Source: Clostridia bacterium (lineage in GTDB: Bacteria; Bacillota; Clostridia; RUG12999). Taken from it: a stretch of DNA of 64,000 nucleotides. The DNA lies in assembly GCA_017467445.1 (NCBI GenBank), contig JAFTSG010000003.1:75753-139752 (forward strand), written 5' to 3'. This document shows positions 6,867 through 23,119 of the stretch, one piece after another. The position numbers were made by a program, and so were the translations under genes. Under the pieces are notes generated by a model that did no database searches, was not told the origin of the DNA, and saw nothing but the letters and a program-made list of their open reading frames with translations. Every line of letters begins with the position of its first letter. The first letter of the stretch is position 1.

Positions 6867-8232
6867 ATTTACCTACGCAGAACTCTTTAAATATCCTGTC
6901 AACTACTTCTTCGGAAACTGTCATTCCTGTTATTTCGCCGAGGGCTTCAACCGCTTCTGTCATATCAATAGATATAAAATCAAGCGGCATTCCCGATGTA
7001 TATGAATTGTATGCGTGTCGGATAGCATTTTTTGCGCGTGTTACCGCTTCTATATGCCTTACGTTTACAAGCACGGCATCCGCATCGGTTTCTATACCGC
7101 CCATTTCAAACATATCGCTGATGAGCGTTTTAAGTTCATCTATCCCCTCACCCGTTCTTGCGGCGGTGGTTACTACTGTTGCATCCGGTAAAAGTTTTTT
7201 GTACTTCTCTGCAGCACCGGCAATCTCAATATCTGTTTTATTAAGGAGAAGAATCGTATTTTTTCCCTGCACAAGCAATGCTACTTCCTCATCCTCGCTG
7301 TTTGGCATTTCGGATGTATCAACCACATACAAAACCAAATCCGCATCCTTGATTACATTTTTTGCACGGTCCACACCGATTTTTTCAACTACATTTTCCG
7401 TATCTCTGATACCTGCGGTGTCAATAAGTTTAAGTAACACATCGTCTACCTGAAGAAATTCTTCAACCGTATCTCTTGTTGTGCCGGGTATGTTTGTTAC
7501 AATGGCTTTTTCCTTTTCCACCAGTGCGTTAAGCACCGAGGATTTACCTGCATTTGGTCTTCCTGCGATTACTGTTGCAACTCCCTCACGGATATATCTT
7601 CCCTTTTCGGCACTTTTAAGGAGGCTGTCAAGTTCAGCTATATATCGTATAAGGTCATCTGCTAATGCCGTTTCATCTATACCGGAAATTCCTTCTTCCG
7701 GGAAATCGGCTTCTGCCTGAATGCTTGCAAGCACACGAAGAAGCTTATCTCTTACGGTGTTTATTTTAGACGAAATACTTCCCTCAAGCTGATTCACACC
7801 AACCGAAAGGGCTGTATTAGTTTTTGAATTTATTATATCAATAACGGCTTCTGCCTGTGAAAGGTCCATTTTTCCGTTTAAAAAGGCTCGTTTGGTAAAT
7901 TCACCTGCAAGAGCATATCTTACCCCTTTTTCAGCAAGGATGCCCAGAATTTCACGCACAGAGGTCATAGATCCGTGGCAGCTTATTTCCGCAACATCTT
8001 CGCCCGTAAACGAATTCGGTGCACGCATTACCGCAACAAGTACCTGATCAACATATCCGTTTTTACCAAGGATTTTACCAAGATGAACTGTATGTGTAGG
8101 CACATTTTCAATGTCTTTTGAAAATATCGTGTTTACGGTTTTAATTGAATCACTGCCGCTTACTCGTATAACCGCAATACTGCTTGTCCCTGGCGGCGTG
8201 GCAAGCGCCGCTATCGTATCGTTTGAAAGCAT
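6865..8232 (-). CDS. mnmE: tRNA modification GTPase MnmE
   Basis: 455 aa. G-domain GRPNAGKSS, DTAGIR, NKTD; C-terminal FCVGK (CxGK) motif. Confidence 0.95.
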   Translation of the reverse strand: MLSNDTIAALATPPGTSSIAVIRVSGSDSIKTVNTIFSKDIENVPTHTVHLGKILGKNGYVDQVLVAVMRAPNSFTGEDVAEISCHGSMTSVREILGILAEKGVRYALAGEFTKRAFLNGKMDLSQAEAVIDIINSKTNTALSVGVNQLEGSISSKINTVRDKLLRVLASIQAEADFPEEGISGIDETALADDLIRYIAELDSLLKSAEKGRYIREGVATVIAGRPNAGKSSVLNALVEKEKAIVTNIPGTTRDTVEEFLQVDDVLLKLIDTAGIRDTENVVEKIGVDRAKNVIKDADLVLYVVDTSEMPNSEDEEVALLVQGKNTILLLNKTDIEIAGAAEKYKKLLPDATVVTTAARTGEGIDELKTLISDMFEMGGIETDADAVLVNVRHIEAVTRAKNAIRHAYNSYTSGMPLDFISIDMTEAVEALGEITGMTVSEEVVDRIFKEFCVGK

Positions 8233-8297
8233 TATTCCACCTTCTTATGTATGGTATAAATATATTATACCATACATTTTGGTGTTTAACAAGTATA

Positions 8298-9062
8298 TTA
8301 TTTACGTTTAAACTGCCGCACAAGTGCTATTATTCCGGTGGCTGCAAGCACGATAAGACATACAGTAAGTGCCGTTATTATTTCCGGATACTGACCGGCA
8401 TAGTAACGCACGGAAACGTGTTTTACAAGAATGCCGATATATCCCTATATTACTGCCAGCATATACGGAAAATCCTTGTTTCTTAGGGCTGTTATGGAAG
8501 CTATTATTGTGCCAAGTACAAGAACTATTATTGTCCACGTGCTTTCCGAAAATAGAAATCCGTCAAATCCGATACTTACAAGAAAAGTTGTTACGTTTGC
8601 AATTGTTGCAATAGTTATCCATCCAAAATATATGCCAAAGGGTAGACGCAGGAAAAATCCCTCGTCTTTTAGTGTACTACTTATTGAACCGAGTGAAATC
8701 AAAAGAATAATCATTAAAACAAGTGCAAGACCTATAAGATAGTAACTCCACGATACTATCCAGAGGGTATTTGCAATTGACGAAACCGCAAACAACGTAC
8801 GTACTTTATCAAGCAGCTCTGGTTTTTTTACCGTTATAAACTGATAAATTGTAAATATTCCAAGAAGTGTATAAATCACTCCCCATATTGCAAATGTGCC
8901 CGCTGCCGGTGCAAAAAGATTTGGGTATGCGTCCGACACCTGTGCTGTAGGTGTATTGTTAAACACCCCGAATGTTGCCATTATATTTGCCGCTATCATT
9001 ATAACAAAGGTTGCGGCAGCTATAATTTTAAGTATAAAGGTATTATTTTTTTGTACAGGCAT
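8298..9062 (-). pseudogene. polytopic membrane protein (tentatively TspO/MBR-related) with one in-frame TAG at 8445-8447
   Basis: The 205-aa ORF 8445-9062 stops at TAG. The same frame then continues for 48 sense codons (GYIGILVKH...ITALTVCLIVLAATGIIALVRQFKRK) to TAA at 8298-8300, encoding a further TM helix. Confidence 0.55.
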
Positions 9063-9225
9063 TCAAATCATCTCCTTTATATGATTATATGATATTTCTA
9101 TCTATTCAATGCAAAAAGGTGTTGTACTAATCAATAAAACTTACCATGAATAAGAGTTTTGCTATTTACAATAACTTAATTTTACTATATAATACTATTG
9201 TAAGATTATTTTGGGAGATGAAGCA

Positions 9226-11058
9226 ATGTCAGTTCTTCAGTCGGTAAATTCACCCGAAGATTTAAAAAAACTAACCGCTTGCGAGCTTGAACGCTACTGC
9301 TACGAAGCTCGTGAATTTCTTATAAATACTGTTTCGGAAACAGGGGGGCACCTTGCGTCCAATTTAGGTGTTGTGGAGCTTACCTGCGCACTGCATTACG
9401 TATTTAACTGTCCTACGGACAAGCTTGTATGGGATGTGGGACATCAGGCATACGTTCATAAAATGATTACCGGACGGCGTGATTATTTTTCTTCTCTACG
9501 TTCTCTCGGAGGTCTAGCCGGATTCCCGAAAACCACCGAAAGCGAATGTGACTGTTTTAATACCGGACATTCATCCACTGCAATTTCTGCAGCACTCGGC
9601 ATTGCACGTGCACGTGATTTAAATGGCGAGGATTTTAACGTTATCAGCATAATCGGCGATGGTGCGCTTACCGGTGGCATGGCGTTTGAAGCGCTTGCCG
9701 ATGCAGGTCAATCCAAAAATCGTATGATTGTTATTGTTAATGACGACGAAATGTCCATTTCAAAAAATGTTGGCGGCATTTCAAATCATCTTTCCAATTT
9801 GCGTACGGGTACTACTTATAACCGCATAAGAACAAAGATTAAAAAATTGGTTGAAAATGCACCCGTACTTAAAAAGGTTGCACATAAACTGCATGACAGT
9901 TTTAAATATTCCATGGTGCCGAATACTATTTTTGAAGCACTGGGTTTCAGATATATCGGTCCGATTGACGGACATAATTTAAGTCAGCTTATTAAGATTT
10001 TTGAAAGGGTCAAAACCCTTGACGGAAACATTGTAATACACGTTAAAACCGTTAAAGGAAAAGGTTATCAGCCTGCCGAGGATGAGCCAGAAGCATATCA
10101 CGGAGTATCAAAACCGTCCGGCGGACCTACCTATTCATCCGCTCTCGGCAAGGTGCTTCTTGAAGCAGCAGAAAACGACAACCGCATTGTTGCAGTTTCT
10201 GCATCTATGCAGGCAGGTACCGGCATTGAGGAATTTGCAAAAAAATATCCCGACAGATTTTTTGACGCGGGAATTGCTGAAGGGCATGCCGCAACACTTA
10301 CCGCAGGAATGGCAAGCTGCGGATTTATTCCCGTCTTCCCCGTTTATTCGAGTTTCCTACAGCGCGCGTATGACCAAGTGCTACACGACATCTGTCTGCA
10401 GAATCTGCATGTTGTACTTTGCGTTGACAGAGCAGGACTTGTTGGCGAGGACGGCGAAACCCACCACGGAGCGTATGATATTTCGTATCTTAAACATATG
10501 CCCAATATGACAATTCTTGCTCCGTCGTGTATTGCAGAGCTTTACCGTATGTTTGACTATGCACTTTATACACTTACAGGACCTGTTGCAATTCGCTATC
10601 CCAAAGGACCTCAAAAGCTTGACATACTCTATCATACTCCCCTTGAATATGGTAAAGGTGAGCTTCTTATTTCAGGCAAAGATGTGCTTATTGTTGCATC
10701 AGGAAACACTGTGCCTGTTGCATTTGAGGTATCGGATATACTTACAAGACGCAACATTGCAAGCAGCATTATTGACCTTAGGTTTGCCTCACCGATTGAC
10801 GAAGAATTGATACTTTCAAATCTTGAAGATAAAAAGCTTGTTGTTATGATTGAAGATAATGTTGACAAAGGCGGTATAAGCGAAGATGTTGTGAAAGTTT
10901 TGTATGAATCGGGCATCCGTATTCCGTTTTTGCAGCTTGGGCTTGGGTGCACACCAATTTCGCACGGAACGGTAGATGACCTTCGCACGGCATATGGTCT
11001 TTCTGCTGAAAAAATGGCGGAAAAGATAATGTATAAACTGCTTAAATTCAGACCATAA
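9226..11058 (+). CDS. dxs: 1-deoxy-D-xylulose-5-phosphate synthase
   Basis: About 610 aa from the ATG at 9226 (GGGAG RBS 8 nt upstream). Blocks WDVGHQAY, GHSSTAISAALG, IIGDGALTGGMAFEAL, GEDGETHHG. Confidence 0.95.
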   Translation: MSVLQSVNSPEDLKKLTACELERYCYEAREFLINTVSETGGHLASNLGVVELTCALHYVFNCPTDKLVWDVGHQAYVHKMITGRRDYFSSLRSLGGLAGFPKTTESECDCFNTGHSSTAISAALGIARARDLNGEDFNVISIIGDGALTGGMAFEALADAGQSKNRMIVIVNDDEMSISKNVGGISNHLSNLRTGTTYNRIRTKIKKLVENAPVLKKVAHKLHDSFKYSMVPNTIFEALGFRYIGPIDGHNLSQLIKIFERVKTLDGNIVIHVKTVKGKGYQPAEDEPEAYHGVSKPSGGPTYSSALGKVLLEAAENDNRIVAVSASMQAGTGIEEFAKKYPDRFFDAGIAEGHAATLTAGMASCGFIPVFPVYSSFLQRAYDQVLHDICLQNLHVVLCVDRAGLVGEDGETHHGAYDISYLKHMPNMTILAPSCIAELYRMFDYALYTLTGPVAIRYPKGPQKLDILYHTPLEYGKGELLISGKDVLIVASGNTVPVAFEVSDILTRRNIASSIIDLRFASPIDEELILSNLEDKKLVVMIEDNVDKGGISEDVVKVLYESGIRIPFLQLGLGCTPISHGTVDDLRTAYGLSAEKMAEKIMYKLLKFRP

Positions 11059-14429: not shown

Positions 14430-15023
14430 TCAGTACCAAAATCTTCTTTGGTTTTTATAAAGATATAAAAATCGCTTTTTTAAAGTTCTTCTTGCTATGT
14501 ACAGCTGCCTTTGCACAAAGAAAACATCAAGACCATAGCGTTCAGCAATTTCAATTTCGTTAAGCCTCCTGAATGCACGTTTTTTCAGTAAATTCCGCTG
14601 AAATGATGATAGCGAAGCGAAGGCAATATGTATACACGTTTTCCATTCTTTTTCAATGGCTATACGTTCCGGCAGAGCATATTTTGAATGTATAAGGTGA
14701 AGATGTATCGGCAATTCGCCGTGCTCTGCGTATTTTTTATATTCATCCGCCAACAGGGCTTTTGCAATTTCACATACCCATGTTGAATATTTGCTTCTTC
14801 CTTTAAAGAGCGAAAGCTTTTCATAACTTATTGTAAAAGCTTCGGCAGTAATATCATCGGCTGATATATATCCTTTGAACCTTCTCCATATTTTCTTTCT
14901 TACATATCCGTGCACCAATTTATAATACTTTTCGTAAAGTATTTCCCATGCGCCAATATCCCCTTTCAGCGTTTTTCTTACTAGCCTGTAATCTTCTCTC
15001 CAAATCCTTTTGTCTATAATCAT
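14430..15023 (-). CDS. sigma-70 family (ECF-type) sigma-factor-like protein
   Basis: Region-2-like DDITAEAFTISYEKLSLFKGRSKYSTWVCEIAKALLADEYKK and region-4-like LSSFQRNLLKKRAFRRLNEIEIAERYGLDVFFVQRQLYIARRTLKK. The start is placed at ATG 15021-15023, 7 nt after a GAGGA RBS and 4 nt after the upstream stop. Confidence 0.7.
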   Translation of the reverse strand: MIIDKRIWREDYRLVRKTLKGDIGAWEILYEKYYKLVHGYVRKKIWRRFKGYISADDITAEAFTISYEKLSLFKGRSKYSTWVCEIAKALLADEYKKYAEHGELPIHLHLIHSKYALPERIAIEKEWKTCIHIAFASLSSFQRNLLKKRAFRRLNEIEIAERYGLDVFFVQRQLYIARRTLKKRFLYLYKNQRRFWY

Positions 15024-15027
15024 ATTT

Positions 15028-16110
15028 TTATCCTCGCAAAATCTTATTACACCAGCTGTCCCATGTTTCTGTCTGAATATCGAGAACGGAATAAGAATCC
15101 GCAAGATGCCGCCCGTGGCTGTCCGCCAGGTCATCTGTTGTTCTTCCTGCAATAAGAACGTAAAAGAATTTCACATCCTTATTCGGGTCAACGCCCAGTT
15201 TGTAGTCGGGACCGCGAAATGCACCATAAGGCTTTCTGCCATTCTTAACTTCAGCAAGAACTTCATGAACAAACCTACGGTATGTTTCATAATGACCTTT
15301 TATCCACTCTGCCCGTTCATTTAACTGTTCTCTACCTTCTGCCGCAAAAGATGTAAAGGCTTTATAATGGTTTTTTCTGAAAATCCCTCGTTTTGCACCT
15401 TTTATTTCAATTAGGTACACATTCATACGGGAACGCCCCGTAAAGACGGCAAAATCAACCCTGCCGCTGCCTACCGGAAATTCGCAAAAACAAACATATT
15501 CCTCCGGCGAATAAGCATAAAACTCCCCTAAAAGAGATAAATCCTCTTTTAAAAATTCTGCAAGCTCTCGTTCTGTAGGATTTTTATCCAGTAATGCTTT
15601 AAACTCGTGTTTGGAATGCTGATTTAACTTTATCTCCAGCCGACTTTGTGTAATTTCTGGATTTTCCGAATATTCAAATTGCTCTATTGCCGGAATCCCG
15701 TTCAGCGCATCGTAAATTTCTTTCATAACGCGCTCGTCATTTTTATATAAATCAAATTCGCTTTCTTCACAATCCAGTATTTTCAATATCTTTGCAAAAG
15801 AAATTGATCTCCATATTGGTCTTTCGTCTTCATCAAAACTAACCATAGAAAATTTTTCTTCCCGGTCAAATGGGCGCGGATAATGTTCTATAATTTGAGC
15901 ATTTTGCGGTATTTTTTGCAATTCTGTAAGCTGCTCCAGTATAAGTTCCAGCGCATTTGTAACCGATGTTGAACGAGCTTCTTCCGATAAGTCAGTAAGT
16001 ACAATATGAATTTTTGATTCCTTGTTTGTAAATATTCTGACTCTGCACAAAGAAGCTTCTGACGCAAATCCATATGTTTTAAATCTGAAAACAAAATCTG
16101 TAATTTTCAT
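15028..16110 (-). CDS. Shedu-like (DUF4263-type) PD-(D/E)xK nuclease, putative anti-phage effector
   Basis: 360 aa. C-terminal half ERELAEFLKEDLSLLGEFY...GSGRVDFAVFTGRSRMNVYLIEIKGAK...EQL matches the D...E.K core and the preceding E..FL....LG helix that I recall for SduA/DUF4263. Confidence 0.6.
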   Translation of the reverse strand: MKITDFVFRFKTYGFASEASLCRVRIFTNKESKIHIVLTDLSEEARSTSVTNALELILEQLTELQKIPQNAQIIEHYPRPFDREEKFSMVSFDEDERPIWRSISFAKILKILDCEESEFDLYKNDERVMKEIYDALNGIPAIEQFEYSENPEITQSRLEIKLNQHSKHEFKALLDKNPTERELAEFLKEDLSLLGEFYAYSPEEYVCFCEFPVGSGRVDFAVFTGRSRMNVYLIEIKGAKRGIFRKNHYKAFTSFAAEGREQLNERAEWIKGHYETYRRFVHEVLAEVKNGRKPYGAFRGPDYKLGVDPNKDVKFFYVLIAGRTTDDLADSHGRHLADSYSVLDIQTETWDSWCNKILRG

Positions 16111-16216: not shown

Positions 16217-16609
16217 TTATCTGTCTGAATTTGTCATACAACGTTTTTGCTGAAGTCTGTCAAGAGCTTCACCGAAACGCTGGAAATGCACAATTTCTCG
16301 CTGACGCAGGAATTTGATAACGTCGTTTACGTCTGGGTCATCCGATACTGTAAGGATATTATCATACACCACTCTTGCTTTTTGTTCTGCTGCGAGGTCC
16401 TCTACTAAATCAGCAATCGGATCGCCCATTACGTTAATTGCCGTAAGTTTGAGCGCTTCACCGCCGGCATTTACCGGATACACACCTTTGCCGTGGTCAA
16501 TATAATATGCACCAAACGGGCTGTTTTCAATTTCTGATTCTTTCAGGTTTTTGGTAAGCTGATGCACAATTGTGCCTACCATTTCAAGATGTGCAAGTTC
16601 CTCTGTTCC
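16217..16609 (-). CDS. cotJC: cotJC (Mn-catalase-family spore coat protein), 3' segment of a split gene
   Basis: The frame opens at the junction with (G)TEELAHLEMVGTIVHQL... and continues through DLAAEQKARVVYD...FLRQREIVHFQRFGEAL, as in Mn catalases/CotJC. It has no start of its own except an internal Met. Confidence 0.85.
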   Translation of the reverse strand, partial: GTEELAHLEMVGTIVHQLTKNLKESEIENSPFGAYYIDHGKGVYPVNAGGEALKLTAINVMGDPIADLVEDLAAEQKARVVYDNILTVSDDPDVNDVIKFLRQREIVHFQRFGEALDRLQQKRCMTNSDR

Positions 16610-16931
16610 TGTGTTCTATACCATTTTGCTCTGTTGAAAAAAATTGAAAATTTTATTTTCAGCAATAGCACAGAAAAGTATGATTTTGAAAAATATTTTA
16701 AAAAAATTTTATATTGGACATAAATTTAGACAGTGTCGTTGTTATTAATATAGAGAGGTATATATACTAGTATAAAATAATAATACAACTTAACATTCTT
16801 AAACAACTCTTAATCAGATGGGGATTGTATCTATTAGGTATTTTGCAAGGTTGGGTGGTTGTGATATGTGTATAAAGTAGCCGTAGTCAATACGTTTTTT
16901 TGTTTTAATCAGGTAAATATTTGTAAAAGTA

Positions 16932-16960
16932 TTGAAAAAGATAAAGTTTTGTGTTAAAAT
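16932..16960 (+). promoter_or_regulatory. sigma-A-type promoter
   Basis: TTGAAA (16932-16937), 17-nt spacer, TGtTAAAAT extended -10 (16955-16960). Confidence 0.55.
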
Positions 16961-16967
16961 ACAATAG

Positions 16968-17092
16968 TCACGTAGTTAAATATTCTATTATACACCATAA
17001 GGCTTGCGTTGGTAAAAACGCAGGCTTGCTGTTCGTTCCCTTATGGTGTAATGGATTAACTGCGTGACAACAGGAGCATAGCCTCGTTTTTC
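16968..17092 (+). promoter_or_regulatory. structured 5' leader (nested helices), candidate cis-regulatory RNA of unknown class
   Basis: P1 is 16968-16979 / 17056-17067 (12 bp, one G-U). P2 is 16991-17002 / 17039-17050 (12 bp, perfect). P3 is 17003-17009 / 17018-17024. Lies between a promoter and a terminator. Confidence 0.4.
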
Positions 17093-17093
17093 G

Positions 17094-17121
17094 TGCGTGG
17101 GCTTATGCCCACGCATTTTTT
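17094..17121 (+). terminator. intrinsic terminator/attenuator upstream of the 17142 CDS
   Basis: TGCGTGGGC-TTAT-GCCCACGCA followed by TTTTTT, then GGAGG RBS and ATG. Confidence 0.75.
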
Positions 17122-17141
17122 AATTTATGGAGGTTTTGCAA

Positions 17142-18041
17142 ATGAAAAGATTTCTAAGTGTTTTGATGGTTGTGATATTATCAGTAAGTGTATTTATTGT
17201 TCCTGTATCAGCCAATAATGAGTTGTCAGTTGTGCTGAATGGTGAACCATTAGAATTTGACGTTCAACCACAAATAATTAATGGTCGTACCATGGTTCCT
17301 ATGCGTAAAATCTTTGAAGAATTAGGCGCAACTGTAGATTGGGATGGTAGCATACAAAAGATAACTGCAAAAAAACAAGATATAACAGTTGTTATGCAGA
17401 TTAATAGCAATATATTATCAGTAAACGGAAACAATGTTACATTAGATGTTCCACCGCAATTAGTTAATGGAAGAACTCTTGTTCCTGTAAGAGCGGTAGC
17501 GGAAAGTTTTGATATACATGTATTATGGGATGAAGTTTATAATAATGTTGTTTTATCTACATACATTCCTCTTGAAACATCAATACAAGCATTCAATTAT
17601 CTAGGTGCTTGGTTACTTGAGAATGGAAAAGTTTTTGGAGAATATGTATATGTAGGTTGGGAAGTAGTAGAGGGTGTTAATGCAGAAATTCGTTGTTATC
17701 CTGAAAGTGGGAATATAGCATTTTATCTTGATAGTTATCAAAATGACGGCATAATGACTGCAATAAATATATGGCCGACTTATGATGGAAACGATGTCTA
17801 TGCAACATATATTAGCGGTTCTCAAACTTGCAGAATTGATGGAAATATTAATATGGCGATGCATACCCCAAATTATCCACTTGCTTATAGAGAGTGTGAG
17901 CCAGGGGAATTTGAAACAACATACAACTTACTTGATGATACAAGAGAGAGAATTAATGTTTTGTTAAATGAAGTTGACTTGCTTTTAGCATTTGAGAATT
18001 CAGGTGTTAATTTAAATACGTTAGGTTTTAAAAAATATTAA
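17142..18041 (+). CDS. secreted protein with copper-amine-oxidase-N-terminal-like (stalk) repeats
   Basis: Signal peptide MKRFLSVLMVVILSVSVFIVPVSA. Two repeats of LNGEPLEFDVQPQIINGRTMVPMRKIFEELGATVDWD / VPPQLVNGRTLVPVRAVAESF. Start chosen 8 nt after GGAGG. Confidence 0.7.
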   Translation: MKRFLSVLMVVILSVSVFIVPVSANNELSVVLNGEPLEFDVQPQIINGRTMVPMRKIFEELGATVDWDGSIQKITAKKQDITVVMQINSNILSVNGNNVTLDVPPQLVNGRTLVPVRAVAESFDIHVLWDEVYNNVVLSTYIPLETSIQAFNYLGAWLLENGKVFGEYVYVGWEVVEGVNAEIRCYPESGNIAFYLDSYQNDGIMTAINIWPTYDGNDVYATYISGSQTCRIDGNINMAMHTPNYPLAYRECEPGEFETTYNLLDDTRERINVLLNEVDLLLAFENSGVNLNTLGFKKY

Positions 18042-18062
18042 TATTTTATTTCTTCATGGGCG

Positions 18063-18091
18063 TTGACTATAGTATTTAATGGAGGTATAAT
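18063..18091 (+). promoter_or_regulatory. sigma-A-type promoter
   Basis: TTGACT (18063-18068), 17-nt spacer, TATAAT (18086-18091). Confidence 0.6.
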
Positions 18092-18097
18092 ATATAT

Positions 18098-18257
18098 AAG
18101 TAAATTATATGAATATATGATTTGCTTGTAATTATGGTATCGAGTGCAACGGCACGGGCTTAATGATTATTTAAGTTGGTGGCGGTGGCGGTGGTTTCTT
18201 TAGTGGATGCTAAAGATATTAAATAATGAATAGAGCATAAGCCTGTATTGGCTTTAA
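18098..18257 (+). ncRNA. candidate small RNA or leader (no ORF longer than 16 codons)
   Basis: Lies between a near-consensus promoter and a strong terminator. Contains a GGTGGCGGTGGCGGTGG micro-repeat. Confidence 0.35.
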
Positions 18258-18289
18258 GTGTCGTTACAATCGGTAACGGCACTTTTTTT
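18258..18289 (+). terminator. intrinsic terminator
   Basis: GTGTCGTTAC-AATCG-GTAACGGCAC followed by TTTTTTT. Confidence 0.8.
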
Positions 18290-18324
18290 GTGCAGAAATA
18301 TTTTTATAAGGGGGGGTAACGGAT

Positions 18325-18819
18325 GTGTTACATAGCGGTATTTTCAAAGAGATAGTTAAGAGAAATAAGAATTATAATGGTATCAGCATCAAGTTTACAA
18401 CTGTTGCAGTATTTATCAGGAGAGTTCTTGACTTGTTAGGGTTGTATAGTGTAGCGGATGCGGAAAATGGTATGGTTAGAGCAATTAAGGATGATGAAGA
18501 ATTTGAGATTATTGTTGACAGGACAAATCAAAGGATAGTGTTAGAGGCAGACCTTTGGAGTGTTGGCACAAGAGCCTTTGCAAAGAAGAAAGTCCAGACG
18601 CTTGAAAGACTTAACAGATATAATCAAAATTTAAACTTCGGGTATTGTATGCTTGTTGGGTTTAAGGTTATATACCATACAACAGAAAGTATCTATATGG
18701 GTGTAGATGATGCGGAAGATATGGCAGTTGCAGACGGGTTGATAAGGCATTATATGATTGATACAAAGTTAATAAAAGATATGGTATTTTCTGATGGACT
18801 TGATTGCGTCGGCACGTAA
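18325..18819 (+). CDS. hypothetical protein (element cargo)
   Basis: 164-aa ORF with a GTG start 7 nt after a G-rich RBS (AAGGGGGGG). I recognise no family. Confidence 0.45.
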   Translation: MLHSGIFKEIVKRNKNYNGISIKFTTVAVFIRRVLDLLGLYSVADAENGMVRAIKDDEEFEIIVDRTNQRIVLEADLWSVGTRAFAKKKVQTLERLNRYNQNLNFGYCMLVGFKVIYHTTESIYMGVDDAEDMAVADGLIRHYMIDTKLIKDMVFSDGLDCVGT

Positions 18820-19290
18820 GCGAAAGTGTTTGTTTAAAAGCGTTGGAAAATTTACGGTAATTTTTCAACCAACACAAATTTGCTGGATTTTCAGTAGGTA
18901 GATTTTTGAAATTTTAGTTATCGGATGCAAAAAGTGTCAAAAGTGTTGGTTTTAGTTCGGGAGTGGAATGTGAAAATTTGCAGATTATTTCAATCTTATT
19001 TATCTTATACCATTAAATAGTGGTCGCAGAAAATTAAGATTAAAGAAATCAACAAAAATTTGATTTTAACATCAAGAAAAGGTTGAAATTACGGCATTTT
19101 GTGATTTTAAAATTTGCATCGTGATTTTGTGTTGAAATGACAGTATTTTTATAAAATTACATAAAATTTGTGGTTAAGAGATGAAAAAAGAGAGTTCATA
19201 TATTTTAAGTTATGGGTACGTTCTACCTATACAGGCTACTTGTGAGGTTTGGCGTATTCAATAGATTTATTCATAAGGTAGGTGTTAAAT

Positions 19291-19881
19291 ATGGAATACG
19301 GTTATGTTCGTGTGTCAAGCAAAAGTCAGGCAGAAAATCATTCTCTAGCAGAGCAAGAACAGACAATCTTAGAAAAGTATCCTTCGGCAGAGATACGCAG
19401 AGAAGTGTTTACTGCTGCAAAAGACTTTAATAATAGACAGGTGTTTAATGACCTAATTGACAGGTTGACAGATGGGGATTGTTTGATAGTTTCCAAGATG
19501 GATAGATTTTGCCGTAATGTTCGCGAGGGGTTAGATATCATAGAACATTTGATGGATAAGGGTATTAAGATAGATATACTGAATTTAGGTGTTATAGATA
19601 ATACGCCTGTTGGCAGGTTAACTTATACAATCTTATTGTCTTTTGCAGAATTTGTGAGAAATATGATTGTAGAGCGTACACAAAGCGGTCGCGAACTTGC
19701 AAGACAAAAGGATGGGTACATAGAAGGCAGACCAAGAAAATTTAGCAACACACAACTCGCATTGGCGATGCAGTTGTTAGAAAACCATTCATATAAACAA
19801 GTTTCATCGATGACAGGTATATCAAAGAGTACACTACAAAGAGAAAAGAAAAGGACAGTTGACAAAAATAACAGGACATAA
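19291..19881 (+). CDS. small serine recombinase (resolvase/invertase family)
   Basis: [13 protein letters not shown] catalytic-Ser N-terminus, [19 protein letters not shown]-terminal HTH ([17 protein letters not shown]). ATG placed behind an AAGGTAGG RBS. Confidence 0.85.
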
Positions 19882-19993
19882 ATTTTAAAAAATTAACTAA
19901 AATCTAAAAAAATTTACTGATGAGAGCAAAACTGACTAAAATGCACACAGTTACCTTAAATTAAGTATCAATTCGTAAGGGAGGGTACTTAAA

Positions 19994-20212
19994 ATGGGTA
20001 GTGCATTAAGACAACCTTATAACGCATATACATCTATTGGTGGTGTTATGCCTATGGGAAATAAAGTTAATGTTGTTCTTTCAGATAAAGAGAAAGAGAA
20101 CTTAAATCACAGTCTTAAATCTTCTGTATATAAAGAATTATATAGAAAGTCTCTTATTACAGATAGAGAGTTAAGATTATTGTTAGAAAAAGCGCCTAAA
20201 TTTTTAAATTAG
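19994..20212 (+). CDS. small hypothetical protein (candidate accessory or directionality factor)
   Basis: 72-aa ORF with a GGGAGGG RBS, directly upstream of the large recombinase gene. Confidence 0.4.
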   Translation: MGSALRQPYNAYTSIGGVMPMGNKVNVVLSDKEKENLNHSLKSSVYKELYRKSLITDRELRLLLEKAPKFLN

Positions 20213-20225
20213 GGGCTGAGATATC

Positions 20226-20258
20226 GGAGTGGTTGCGTTATAATACAGTGACCACTCC
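20226..20258. promoter_or_regulatory. inverted repeat enclosing a TATAAT box upstream of the large recombinase gene
   Basis: GGAGTGGT (20226-20233), 17-nt spacer, ACCACTCC (20251-20258). TATAAT at 20239-20244 lies in the spacer. Confidence 0.35.
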
Positions 20259-20299
20259 ACAAATACATTAGAAAAATAGTTAAGTGAGGTTAAAGAATT

Positions 20300-21982
20300 A
20301 TGGTAGATTTGAAAAGATTAAGTAGTAGTAACGTAGTAGCATTTAGTCCTTTTAATGTGTTAAATGATGCAAAGGCGTTGCGCGTAGCCGCTTATGCAAG
20401 GGTTAGTACAGATAAAGATGACCAAGCCAATAGTTTTGAAAGTCAGGTTAAATATTTTACAGAGTTTATTGACAAACAAGAAAATTGGCAGTTGGTTAAG
20501 GTTTATAGTGATGATGGTATTTCAGGAACATCAACCAAAAATCGTGTTGGGTTTAACTCAATGATAGATGATGTTACGGCAGGTAAAATTGATTTTATTA
20601 TAACAAAAGAGGTTTCGCGCTTTGCCAGAAATACAGTTGATACATTGCAGGTAACAAGAGACCTGAAAGAAATGGGTGTTGGAGTTTACTTTATGCTTGA
20701 TAACATTAACACACTTGACAAAGATGGCGAACTTCGCTTGACGCTTATGGCATCTCTTGCACAAGAAGAAAGCAGAAAGACATCAGAACGCGTCAAGTGG
20801 GGGCAGAAAAGACAAATGGAAATGGGTGTTGTCTTTGGTCGCAGCCTGCTTGGGTATAAAGTAGTTGAAGGTAAGTTATATCTGGTTGAAGAAGAAGCAG
20901 AAATTGTTAGAAAGATATTCCATAAATACCTCAATGAAGGTAAAGGTACTCATATAATAGCAAGGGAACTTAAAGAAGAAGGTATCAAGACGTATAACCC
21001 TGATGGTCGTGCAAAATATAAGAATGATTGGTCAAACACACAGATTTTGCGTGTTCTTCGCAATGAGAAATATGTTGGAGATTTGGTGCAAAAAAAGACT
21101 TGGACACAAAACTTTTTAGACCACAAGAAAAGGTATAACAGGGATAATGAAGAGATGGTTAGAATTGAAAACCACCATCCAGAGATTGCAATTATATCAA
21201 GGGATATGTGGAATGCGACACAAGCGGAGTTGCAACGTCGTACGACAACGGCAGAACAGAAATCTAAACATAGTAATAGGTATTGGGCATCAGGTAAAAT
21301 CTATTGTGGGGTATGTGGCGAAAGATTTGTAAACAAAATAAAAAAGACATCAGCAGGCACATCAAGGGCTTGGAATTGTATGAACCATATCAAACCACAC
21401 GCTTTTCGTAATGCAGAGTGTTCTATGTCAGAATGGGCAAGTGACAGGAGTATGAAGAATATTGTTCTTTATATCCTTAATATGTTAGTTGAGAGCAAAG
21501 ATGAACTTAAGACAGAGATTGTAAAGGAGATTTCGCAGTTAAATCTCGAACAAAAAGTTAAGTCAACAGATGATATTCAAGATAAAATTGACAGATTAGA
21601 ACAGAAAAAATTAAAATTGATTGACATTAGAACAGAGGGTGAAATCTCAAAGGAAGATTTTATGAAAAAGATAACTCAATTTGAAACAGAGATTTCAGAG
21701 TTGAAGATACAGTTAGAAGAAATAAAAGAACTTGCTACCACTAAACAACGTCAGCAGGATAGGATGGATAGTATTATCAAGGAAATTGACAAGGTATTGC
21801 AGTTAGATAGTGAAGATTTGGATGAACTGTTAGGAACAGTTACACAAAGTATAACAGTTTATGAAGGTCATACTGTTGTAGTAAGGCTTAAGGATGTACC
21901 TTTTAATTTCAAGGTAGTCTATAAGTCAACAGGTAAATTAGATACATATAGAACAGAGATTTTAAGTCTTGAAGTGGTATAA
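20300..21982 (+). CDS. large serine recombinase (SpoIVCA-like)
   Basis: 560 aa. RVAAYARVSTDKDDQANSFESQ catalytic N-terminus, YSDDGISGTS, recombinase domain, Cys-containing zinc-ribbon region and a C-terminal coiled coil. Confidence 0.9.
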   Translation: MVDLKRLSSSNVVAFSPFNVLNDAKALRVAAYARVSTDKDDQANSFESQVKYFTEFIDKQENWQLVKVYSDDGISGTSTKNRVGFNSMIDDVTAGKIDFIITKEVSRFARNTVDTLQVTRDLKEMGVGVYFMLDNINTLDKDGELRLTLMASLAQEESRKTSERVKWGQKRQMEMGVVFGRSLLGYKVVEGKLYLVEEEAEIVRKIFHKYLNEGKGTHIIARELKEEGIKTYNPDGRAKYKNDWSNTQILRVLRNEKYVGDLVQKKTWTQNFLDHKKRYNRDNEEMVRIENHHPEIAIISRDMWNATQAELQRRTTTAEQKSKHSNRYWASGKIYCGVCGERFVNKIKKTSAGTSRAWNCMNHIKPHAFRNAECSMSEWASDRSMKNIVLYILNMLVESKDELKTEIVKEISQLNLEQKVKSTDDIQDKIDRLEQKKLKLIDIRTEGEISKEDFMKKITQFETEISELKIQLEEIKELATTKQRQQDRMDSIIKEIDKVLQLDSEDLDELLGTVTQSITVYEGHTVVVRLKDVPFNFKVVYKSTGKLDTYRTEILSLEVV

Positions 21983-22057
21983 AGAAAATGGCAAAGCATA
22001 CTGATTTCAGTAGGCTTTGCCTATCTTTGTATAAAGGAGCAAAATCGTCGCTGATAG

Positions 22058-22243
22058 ACCTATATCCGTCAGGATTGCTTTTGCCATATCGTCTTCCATA
22101 TGGTAACGTTGCGACAGATAGCGAAGTGATGCCGCAATTTCACCATTTGGTCCACCGTACTGTGAAATGATGTAAGCGGCAAGTTTAGGGTTTGTATTTT
22201 TGATTTTTATCGGGTACTGCAATTTTTTAAGATAATTCCACAT
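22058..22243 (-). CDS. cotJC: cotJC, 5' segment of a split gene
   Basis: MWNYLKKLQYPIKIKNTNPKLAAYIISQYGGPNGEIAASLRYLSQRY...AILTDIG is a Mn-catalase/CotJC N-terminus. After G62 the frame runs into element DNA and stops at 22007. Confidence 0.85.
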
Positions 22244-22259: not shown

Positions 22260-22505
22260 TCAATCCTTTTCCCAAGGCCACGGACCGTCCATCCATGCCC
22301 ATCTTTCGGAATTCATATTGTTTTCACTTCTGAGAGGACCATAATCATCCTCGTATTCTTCTACAAGGTCTTCAAGCTTTTCGGCAACAGATTTGTGCAT
22401 TGCCAATGCCTTTTTGTCGGTAGGATTGGTGTCCAGAAACAGGTTTAGTTCTTTTTCTACAAATGCATATTCCATTATTTCCTGTAACAAATCTTCTCTT
22501 GACAT
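22260..22505 (-). CDS. cotJB: spore coat protein CotJB
   Basis: 81 aa. LLQEIMEYAFVEKELNLFLDTNPTDKKAL...YEDDYGPL matches CotJB in size and pattern; positioned between cotJA and cotJC. Confidence 0.8.
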   Translation of the reverse strand: MSREDLLQEIMEYAFVEKELNLFLDTNPTDKKALAMHKSVAEKLEDLVEEYEDDYGPLRSENNMNSERWAWMDGPWPWEKD

Positions 22506-23119
22506 CAGTCTTCCTCCTTCATTTCATAAACATTTTTCGGCAAATCCAGAATTTTGAAGAGTGTTCCCCGTTTAAGTGCTCTGTGAGGTTCATTAACTCC
22601 TTCAAAATCATGTGGTTTTACACAGGCATATCCTGTTCGCATACAACCGCACGGCTGCATCGGTTTTGGGGACTCGGGTCTTTCCGGTCTTTGTGGAGGA
22701 CGGTTTTCCTGCATTGGTGGACGATTTTCCGGTCTTTGCGGAGGACGGTTTTCCTGCATCGGAGGACGATTTTCCGGTCTTTGCGGAGGACGGTTTTCCT
22801 GCATTGGTGGACGATTTTCCGGTCTCTGCGGAGGACGGTTTTCCGGTCTCTGGGGGCGCATCTGCCCGTTATTTCCGTTATTACCATTATTGCCGTTTGG
22901 CGGACGCTGTGGGCGTTGCTGACTTATTGTGGGAACACTCCACATATCGTCCTCCTCGCTACCTTCCGGCGTGCCATGAATAGAACGAAATCCGTTATTC
23001 ATATCATAGTTATACATATCATCTGTCATTCCACGACCTGTAATGTCCATAAGTCGTCTCATGATTTCATCTGCACCGTTAGTTCTATCGTTTCCGTTAT
23101 TATACATAACTACCTCCAT
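22505..23119 (-). CDS. cotJA: spore coat-associated protein CotJA with an expanded proline-rich repeat region
   Basis: C-terminal GYACVKPHDFEGVNEPHRALKRGTLFKILDLP resembles the CotJA signature. First gene of the cotJABC order. Confidence 0.7.
   Translation of the reverse strand: MEVVMYNNGNDRTNGADEIMRRLMDITGRGMTDDMYNYDMNNGFRSIHGTPEGSEEDDMWSVPTISQQRPQRPPNGNNGNNGNNGQMRPQRPENRPPQRPENRPPMQENRPPQRPENRPPMQENRPPQRPENRPPMQENRPPQRPERPESPKPMQPCGCMRTGYACVKPHDFEGVNEPHRALKRGTLFKILDLPKNVYEMKEED
22686..22866. repeat. 45-bp tandem repeat, 3 full copies plus a partial one, inside cotJA
   Basis: Units start at 22686, 22731, 22776 and 22821 (GGTCTTTGCGGAGGACGGTTTTCCTGCATYGGWGGACGATTTTCC). Encodes ENRPPQRPENRPPMQ on the minus strand. 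Confidence 0.9.

Follow-up and report, generated by a model that had tools for sequence, protein, structure and literature searches.

In the 64-kb stretch of the Clostridia bacterium contig JAFTSG010000003.1 analysed here (the window), the minus-strand gene cotJC is split in two by a 5,451-bp insert at 16608-22058, as seen by reading of the open reading frames (ORFs) and by in-silico joining of the two segments. This insert is probably a compact, non-phage integrative element from a horizontally spread family, the large serine recombinase (LSR) of which takes as its attachment site the GG of the Gly62 codon in cotJC (TDIG^TEELAH, where ^ marks the break). An earlier note on this DNA had described a minus-strand cotJC split by about 5.45 kb of intervening DNA, which was borne out with the exact size given above, and had called the intervening DNA skin-like and developmentally excised, two descriptions that are revised below.

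The minus-strand ORF at 22243-22007 (78 aa) starts like CotJC and departs from the family after ...AILTDIG. The 5' segment of cotJC proper spans 22059-22243 (minus strand) and holds codons 1-61 plus GG, the first two bases of the Gly62 codon; from there the frame reads on into the element to a stop at 22007. The cotJC frame reopens at TEELAHLEMVG within the 3' segment (16217-16607, minus strand), which completes the Gly62 codon with its third base and carries codons 63-191 plus the stop codon, ending at 16217. The trinucleotide AGG is common to both junctions (22061-22059 and 16610-16608), and joining anywhere inside it (e.g. 22059 to 16607) gave DIGTEEL within a reading frame of 576 nt and 191 aa, the sequence across the core being ...LTDIGTEELAHLEM.... 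The join proposed in the earlier note was right in being in frame, seamless and 191 aa long; its placement, 22058 to 16609, was 3 nt off and doubles the glycine (DIGGTEEL, 192 aa). The reconstituted CotJC (…LTDIG^TEELAHLEM…) matched Pfam Mn_catalase over residues 1-184 (E = 4e-53). In tblastn searches with this protein, its residues 1-62 were 100% identical to the 5' segment, and no second cotJC copy was detected in the 64-kb window.

The interrupted gene, which encodes a protein of the Mn_catalase fold and whose coding sequence is broken by the insert, is the third in a cotJA-cotJB-cotJC cluster. An intact cotJB (22260-22505, minus strand; PF12652, E = 9e-28) lies immediately upstream of cotJC and is preceded by a cotJA-like gene (22505-23119, minus strand) with a weak match to Pfam CotJA (E = 3e-5, 24.4 bits vs a cutoff of 25). 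The earlier view that cotJC alone is disrupted was supported. A hairpin followed by a T-run at 16210-16181 (minus strand) forms the intrinsic terminator that had been noted after cotJC. The cotJ operon of B. subtilis is sigma-E-dependent, and by analogy with it cotJC would be expressed in the mother cell in the present organism. The genes dpaA and dpaB are found near the cotJ locus, and we conclude from their presence that the host is a spore former.

Uninterrupted alleles, for which the earlier note had proposed a search in related genomes, were found among 5.8 billion proteins: P0001 (188 aa) and P0002 (191 aa) were 94% and 90% identical to the reconstruction, respectively, and their genes directly follow cotJB on their own contigs (L001 and L002). 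The alignment over the join showed neither gap nor duplication, with T59-D60-I61-G62-T63-E64-E65 forming invariant columns. Since the L001 and L002 alleles share only 82-85% nucleotide identity with that of the window, they belong to related species and not to the same one. Both carry the attB sequence (…ACAGATATAGGTACTGAAGAACTTGC…); the predicted attB junction of the window's organism is …GACGGATATAGGAACAGAGGAAC…. Neither half of the window's cotJC has a lesion, and no residue is lost or doubled at the join, so that none of the findings named in advance as speaking against a split gene was encountered. Precise excision is predicted to restore an intact ORF of 191 aa with all invariant columns kept.

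The structure of the two junctions is that expected of a serine recombinase target. Within the shared AGG, the non-palindromic crossover dinucleotide GG lies at 22059-22060 at the right junction and at 16608-16609 at the left (both minus strand). The flanking element ends provide the putative recombinase arms, or attP half-sites: the left arm (16610-16635, minus strand) contains GAGCAAAAT, and the right arm (22033-22058, minus strand) reads TCTATCAGCGACGATTTTGCTCC..., an end sequence that recurs in the related loci L014-L024. When the element ends were joined, the rebuilt attP read ...aacaGAGCAAAATggtatagaacacaGGtctatcagcgacgATTTTGCTCcttt, with a predicted circular junction of …AGAACACAGGTCTATCAGCG…. 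This attP forms an imperfect inverted repeat with the junction GG at its centre, 14 of 24 positions being symmetric vs at most 9 at shifted centres. Similar symmetry on the GG (14-18 of 24 positions vs at most 11 at shifted centres) was observed in five of the six elements for which both ends were available. The predicted site thus has the canonical architecture of an LSR attachment site. Elsewhere in the element, a segment upstream of the 72-aa ORF described below (19910-19931, …ACTGATGAGAGCAAAAC…) resembles an inverted left attP arm (73% over 22 nt) and is conserved in L014, L015, L019, L023 and L032; it may serve the LSR as a half-site for autoregulation, unless the resemblance is due to chance.

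The LSR gene (20300-21982, plus strand) encodes 560 aa and ends 76 bp from the right junction, as the earlier note had stated and as ORF and Pfam analyses confirmed. The protein contains, in order, Resolvase (PF00239, 8e-34), Recombinase (PF07508, 1e-23) and Zn-ribbon (PF13408, 7e-6) domains and a C-terminal extension; its catalytic YARVST motif is intact. It matched a PHROG integrase family (E = 5e-127) and is distantly homologous to SPbeta's integrase SprA/YokA (PDB YokA chains, E = 2e-16); its best phage-borne relatives are 42-54% identical. No phage structural, lysis or replication genes were found in the element, the only PHROG families matched being those of integrases/invertases and one of unknown function. 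Likewise, Pfam, PHROG and NCBIfam searches of its five ORFs revealed no relaxase/Mob or coupling protein domains. A plasmid or phage origin of the element was considered, and no close match was obtained.

We asked how widely this recombinase and its target are distributed. A survey of GTDB with the window LSR, using one genome per species, yielded 80 loci with LSRs 44-93% identical to it, in Oscillospiraceae, Lachnospiraceae, Ruminococcus, Butyricicoccus, Agathobaculum, Caldicoprobacter, Peptococcaceae, Lacrimispora, Roseburia and others. A cotJC fragment abuts the LSR gene in 70 of the 80 loci, including isolates and one complete chromosome. At 62 loci this is the cotJC 5' piece (to aa ~62), situated at the LSR 3' end and convergent with it as in the window; at eight it is the 3' piece (from aa ~60), also at the LSR 3' end and co-directional. 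Contigs end before any fragment becomes visible at four loci, and the remaining six show neither arrangement despite room downstream, most of them still having cotJC pieces nearby. In the ~60 junctions that were read at the DNA level, which come from Oscillospiraceae, Lachnospiraceae, Ruminococcus, Butyricicoccus, Caldicoprobacter and others, the break falls at the same nucleotide (...ACNGAYATHGG^T...), beyond which the element ends fall into a few end-sequence subfamilies. Where both cotJC halves are visible the element measures 3.8-8.4 kb, and many others exceed 10 kb. Cultured carriers include Bacterium D16-50 and D16-51, Lachnospiraceae M18-1, MD329 and JLR.KK009, Roseburia sp. 1XD42-69, Lacrimispora saccharolytica An817 and Caldicoprobacter algeriensis TH7C1.

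One 8.3-kb member (L040) encodes, within 7189-9675, an ATPase resembling FtsK/SpoIIIE (Walker A GMSGSGKS) along with a Rep-like protein of 344 aa, both labels having been assigned from sequence motifs and not by domain search. If these labels hold, the LSR family would include integrative mobilisable elements, and the copy in the window would be a stripped-down version.

The history of the element family appears to be independent of that of its hosts. Identity between LSRs was essentially uncorrelated with identity between the host CotJB proteins (Spearman 0.13, 1,540 locus pairs), and in dozens of pairs LSRs that are 98-100% identical reside in hosts whose CotJB proteins are only 25-60% identical. 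The closest LSRs to that of the window (92-93%; L014 and L015) occur next to cotJC 3' fragments only 47-57% identical to the window's, and the nearest host allele (94%) is uninterrupted. The element is also mosaic: it has a segment in common with elements in other hosts at 95-98% nucleotide identity, the LSR genes being only 77% identical, with the breakpoint at the LSR start. Because LSR and host divergence are uncoupled, we conclude that the family is actively spreading and is not a domesticated, skin-like relic. The window element is closer in character to an active small integrative element, or to the non-phage element gin, than to a vertically inherited prophage remnant. With no phage-derived genes, a mosaic structure and an LSR that diverges out of step with its hosts, the element is poorly served by the label skin-like, which is misleading.

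Immediately upstream of the LSR gene lies a 72-aa ORF (19994-20212, plus strand). An ORF of 36-80 aa occupies this position in most loci in which the LSR 5' flank is present; the exceptions are mainly members of one Lachnospiraceae/Oscillospiraceae subgroup, for which the first-ATG ORF caller listed only a toxin-like ORF. Mean identity among the small proteins is 27%, and they share the core ...[FL]xxx[IL]KxG[IM]YKELxxxxLL[TS]xxQLxxLLEK, which was seen with LSRs down to ~45% identity. An AlphaFold2 model of the 72-aa protein, computed from an alignment of close homologues, has a disordered N-terminus followed by a helix-loop-helix, its two helices covering residues 31-51 and 57-66 (pLDDT 84-91 in the helices). 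Nothing significant was found for it in Pfam, PHROGs, NCBIfam, a PDB profile search or Foldseek, a weak SHOCT-like resemblance being the only one obtained. Our preferred assignment, which we hold with about even confidence, is that of a recombination directionality factor (RDF), because SprB/SprA, Skr/SpoIVCA and GirX/GirC show the same strict synteny with an LSR that diverges. As a separate observation, a 120-aa ORF (MER.IKRGDIYYA.LNPV.GSEQ…) lies ~360-380 nt upstream of the LSR gene in nine Lachnospiraceae/Oscillospiraceae loci (L057, L060, L064, L069, L077, L086, L087, L091 and L092). By eye its product is PemK/MazF-like, and it might be part of an addiction module stabilising the element.

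Expression signals differ between subfamilies. Of 25 representative loci, 8 have the mother-cell-type -10 sequence CATA[CT]A.T upstream of the small ORF, vs ~1 expected from shuffled sequences, a count that represents fewer independent cases since some of these loci are related to one another. It mostly lies 13-31 nt before the annotated ATG and, in four loci, 83-98 nt before it. A full sigma-K-type arrangement, AC-N16-CATAnnnTA, precedes the small ORF in L037 and L040. In the window, the DNA separating the 72-aa ORF from the LSR gene contains a palindrome (GGAGTGGT-N17-ACCACTCC; 20226-20258, plus strand) with a central TATAAT (20239-20244). In eight elements the arms of this palindrome and the TATAAT, which is a sigma-70-like match, are invariant and the remainder is nearly so, with variable flanks. 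In all eight, which also carry the small recombinase described below, this segment is more conserved than the flanking genes, and no nucleotide match to it was found in L017, an element lacking the small recombinase. The palindrome looks like an operator over a housekeeping-type promoter, or may be an attenuator, in either case putatively controlling LSR expression.

We propose the following sequence of events. The LSR very probably integrated a circular element by recombination between attP and attB. The same LSR, acting on attL and attR, is likely to be able to excise the element precisely and restore the 191-aa CotJC, a reaction in which the 72-aa protein encoded upstream would help as RDF. 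By analogy with other split sporulation genes, we suggest more tentatively, at somewhat less than even confidence, that excision is switched on in the sporulating mother cell, where CotJC would be made for the coat, the forespore keeping the element. As for the target, its conserved sequence, which allows a broad host range, and the small fitness penalty for occupying a late, dispensable, mother-cell gene would together account best for the choice.

Several results weigh against this scheme. No assembled attB allele of this organism was found in the 5.8-billion-protein collection, the best match (94%) being from another species. Exact-pattern scans of JGI metagenomes and IMG/VR did not find the attP circle. 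Neither search for excised forms had any power, the scans being uninformative because the element end itself is absent from the scanned collections (as a control, the element end alone was also unmatched in JGI). That both cotJC halves are intact does not testify to selection for rebuilding the gene, since the insertions have the look of recent horizontal acquisitions. No known RDF is matched by the 72-aa protein, which could be a DNA-binding protein or small transcriptional regulator. A sigma-E/K promoter search, suggested by the earlier note for the region upstream of 20300, found no convincing promoter upstream of the 72-aa ORF, the LSR gene or cotJA, only one-mismatch or isolated -10-like strings; in the window's subfamily the block upstream of the 72-aa ORF is CACACAGT, a -10-like string with one mismatch and no -35. 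The TATAAT within the palindrome appears to point to vegetative or repressor-controlled, not sporulation-specific, expression of the LSR. To call the element developmentally excised, as the earlier note did, thus goes beyond the evidence, which consists of analogy (skin, SPbeta, vfbin, gin and yin), with no convincing promoter and no excised form in public assemblies.

These results bear on the other explanations as well. A selfish integrative element that uses cotJC as a 'safe harbour', excises only for its own transfer, if at all, and leaves spores without CotJC would fit the strong signature of recent horizontal spread and mosaicism and the lack of a convincing sporulation promoter in the window element. 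It would also fit the pattern of a tolerated target seen in relatives, in which as many as three or four different cotJC sites are struck, two of them at once in some cases (see below). Moreover, the catalase activity of CotJC is regarded as unimportant for assembly of the coat (PMC3533761), and no major coat defect is seen in cotJC-like mutants of C. difficile (PMC11222575). However, most of the inspected cotJC fragments in related loci keep open frames and conserved motifs, an argument that is weak if the insertions are young; a sigma-E/K-type -10 is enriched upstream of the small ORF in other subfamilies; and in the experimental studies consulted, directly or in summary, skin, SPbeta, vfbin, gin and yin all excise, most of them specifically during sporulation. 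On balance we consider simple insertional inactivation a serious possibility, held at appreciably less than even confidence. The earlier note's own reading, a domesticated, vertically inherited skin-like remnant serving mainly the developmental control of cotJC, draws on the small size of the element, its lack of transfer or phage genes, the recombinase adjoining the 5' gene segment, and the presence of the element in every assembly of this organism. Those assemblies, however, are 99.9-100% identical in the element and its contigs, i.e. clonal, so that occupancy in all of them says nothing about long-term fixation, and we rejected 'always occupied' as a sign of it. The uninterrupted state of the closest host allele, the presence of LSRs 92-93% identical in hosts with strongly diverged cotJC 3' fragments, the 95-98% identical segment in other hosts' elements, and the FtsK-like and Rep-like mobilisation genes (motif-based) of larger family members all argue against domestication, which we regard as improbable. 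Lastly, since the window comes from a metagenome-type assembly, a chimera or misjoin might have produced the apparent split. This is effectively refuted by identical junctions in at least seven independent metagenome assemblies (ENA, Logan and NCBI; different samples and pipelines), by the recurrence of this architecture in 70 further genomes, among them isolates and one complete chromosome, and by the LSR attachment-site structure of the junctions. A mobile integrative element targeting Gly62 of cotJC remains the explanation we favour.

The Gly62 codon is not the only position at which cotJC is interrupted in relatives. Members of a further LSR family (494-502 aa), unrelated to the first, occupy the GGP motif (aa 30-32; core ...GGNGGNCC...) at L014:11759-13375, L015:11747-11905, L056:11584-15272, L036:11457-18135 and L075:3378-8181, and also in L025 and L093. 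In L036, L056 and L075 cotJC lies in three pieces, separated by two different elements; the window has the Gly62 insertion only. The second element of L014 carries ImmA-like and XRE-like genes (from sequence motifs only). At L028:11674-11913 and L052:2979-3206, cotJC 3' fragments stop at the same position, ...EDLAA^D within the invariant LAAEQKAR (~aa 135), and are followed by BlaI/BlaR1-like genes in L028 and conjugative-transposon-like genes in L052 (again by motifs only), which suggests a third insertion site. In L031, L086, L063 and L068, cotJC 3' fragments diverge right after QRFGE/D, two of them then being similar to each other (..EDCSK..), and this may mark a fourth site near aa 175. 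Taken to its furthest, clostridial cotJC would be a multi-site landing pad for several unrelated LSR families (GGP at aa 30-32, Gly62, LAAE at ~aa 135 and possibly after QRFGE, with up to two or three insertions per gene), from which the coat catalase would be rebuilt in the mother cell by independent timed excisions, and proteins with the conserved K.GIYKEL...LLT..QL would form a new family of RDFs, controlled by sigma-E/K in some lineages at least. We offer this as speculation and think it rather unlikely to hold as a whole; if true, multi-site excision from cotJC would be the clostridial counterpart of the nifD/fdxN/hupL rearrangements in Anabaena heterocysts.

The G+C content of the element is 33.8% vs 38.3% for the window, and all five ORFs are on the plus strand. 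The leftmost region (16610-17126) shares 71-91% nucleotide identity with L014, L015, L019, L023, L025, L026 and L032, and, because all of its reading frames are equally conserved, we conclude that it is not protein-coding. It is followed by a 304-aa cargo gene (17127-18041, plus strand) with a copper amine oxidase N-terminal-like domain (PF07833, E = 4e-39), which is variable between elements, a homologue being present at only 2 of the 80 loci. The next gene (18325-18819, plus strand) encodes a 164-aa protein of an orphan family that matched nothing in Pfam, PHROG or NCBIfam, has only five representative clusters among 1.84 billion proteins and is present in seven related elements. A further conserved non-coding region (18820-19281) precedes the gene for a small serine recombinase of the resolvase/invertase type (199 aa; 19282-19881, plus strand), which has a C-terminal helix-turn-helix (Pfam Resolvase, E = 5e-28), matches a PHROG DNA invertase (E = 7e-46) and is 99.5% identical in L019 and L023; a repeat search revealed no convincing flanking inverted repeats that would delimit an invertible segment for it. 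Altogether ~1.3 kb of the element (16610-17126, 18042-18324 and 18820-19281) is non-coding and conserved at ~70-98% nucleotide identity between hosts with no frame preference. No structured RNA was matched in the element by Rfam; an origin of transfer (oriT), regulatory RNAs or recombinase accessory sites are possibilities for these regions.

Two features of the neighbouring DNA are recorded here. The cotJA-like gene contains a 45-nt tandem repeat (22681-22844; 3.6 copies, 94% matches by TRF) encoding PPQRPENRPPMQENR-type repeats, and its product is 170, 200 or 204 aa long in otherwise near-identical contigs of the same organism, differences that we attribute to repeat copy number. The segment immediately downstream of the cotJC terminator (14430-16110) holds a Shedu-type defence gene (SduA_C, E = 1.5e-17) together with a sigma-70-like gene; because L001, which has an intact cotJC, carries different genes downstream of it, this segment may be a separate variable island.

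The earlier note had also held that cotJC is not among the known targets of such elements, which proved only half right. A 2021 preprint (10.1101/2021.11.22.469490) lists cotJC as a phage/transposon integration locus, citing an in-silico survey attributed to Abe et al. 2013 (Mol Microbiol 90:415). The main text of Durrant et al. 2022 mentions neither cotJC nor catalase nor spores; it does describe the convergence of diverged LSRs on one conserved coding site, with 33 LSRs in a single prolyl isomerase site (PMC10083194). Nor is cotJC mentioned in the supplements of a 2019 iScience paper, and no experimental study of cotJC interruption was found in the searchable literature. The target has thus been noted before; the interest lies in the family-level picture drawn from the sequences, namely a single-nucleotide target across families of Clostridia, transfer between families that is very recent, conservation of a candidate partner protein and several independent insertion sites within cotJC.

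LSR elements in sporulation genes are the classic cases of programmed DNA rearrangement in bacteria, and the window provides a minimal example (5.45 kb, five genes) with definable attL, attR, attP and attB. Since the family is very widespread in gut Clostridia, including cultured isolates, programmed excision can be distinguished directly from tolerated loss. The family also offers orthogonal site-specific LSRs with defined attachment sites, each paired with a candidate partner, and serves as a marker of very recent gene flow between families of gut Firmicutes. For annotation, the practical warning is that a split cotJC in metagenome-assembled genomes should not be taken as a pseudogene by default.

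Among known elements, Tn4451/Tn4453 is a clostridial element of similar size (~6 kb) with the LSR TnpX, a second resolvase-like gene (tnpY) and a circular intermediate, and the TnpX catalytic domain matched the window LSR (E = 5e-11). Tn4451 additionally encodes a Mob relaxase, which comes with an oriT, and a resistance gene, and many sites containing GA serve as its targets, whereas the cotJC element has no detectable relaxase in its five ORFs and is strictly site-specific. With skin (sigK; SpoIVCA/Skr), SPbeta (spsM; SprA/SprB), vfbin (spoVFB), vrin (spoVR), phi3T (kamA) and yin (yabG), the cotJC element shares the LSR-mediated split of a sporulation gene, predicted precise reconstitution and an LSR at the element end; the earlier note's comparison of layout with skin/SpoIVCA, the LSR lying at the end next to the 5' gene segment, was accurate in this respect. 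In contrast, the members of that set are prophages or their remnants of tens of kb, and the cotJC element lacks phage genes and has a different target gene. Small RDFs working with LSRs have precedents in SprA/SprB of SPbeta, C. difficile skin and GirC/GirX of gin (PMC5595907). The closest characterised analogue is gin, a non-phage element in gerE of Bacillus cereus ATCC10987 with the LSR GirC and the 42-aa RDF GirX, for which sporulation-specific excision and RDF function were demonstrated experimentally (PMC5595907). Like gin, the cotJC element is non-phage, resides in a small mother-cell sporulation gene, and has more than one serine recombinase including one LSR, a tiny candidate partner protein without known motif, a short core common to both junctions and an attP in the form of an inverted repeat; for gin, too, transfer is implied, by identical copies in different strains (PMC5595907). 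Unlike gin, which measures 28.6 kb with 31 genes and occupies gerE, the cotJC element has 5.45 kb and five genes; its excision and the RDF role of its candidate partner are predicted from sequence, and that protein, encoded immediately upstream of the LSR gene, has no similarity to GirX.

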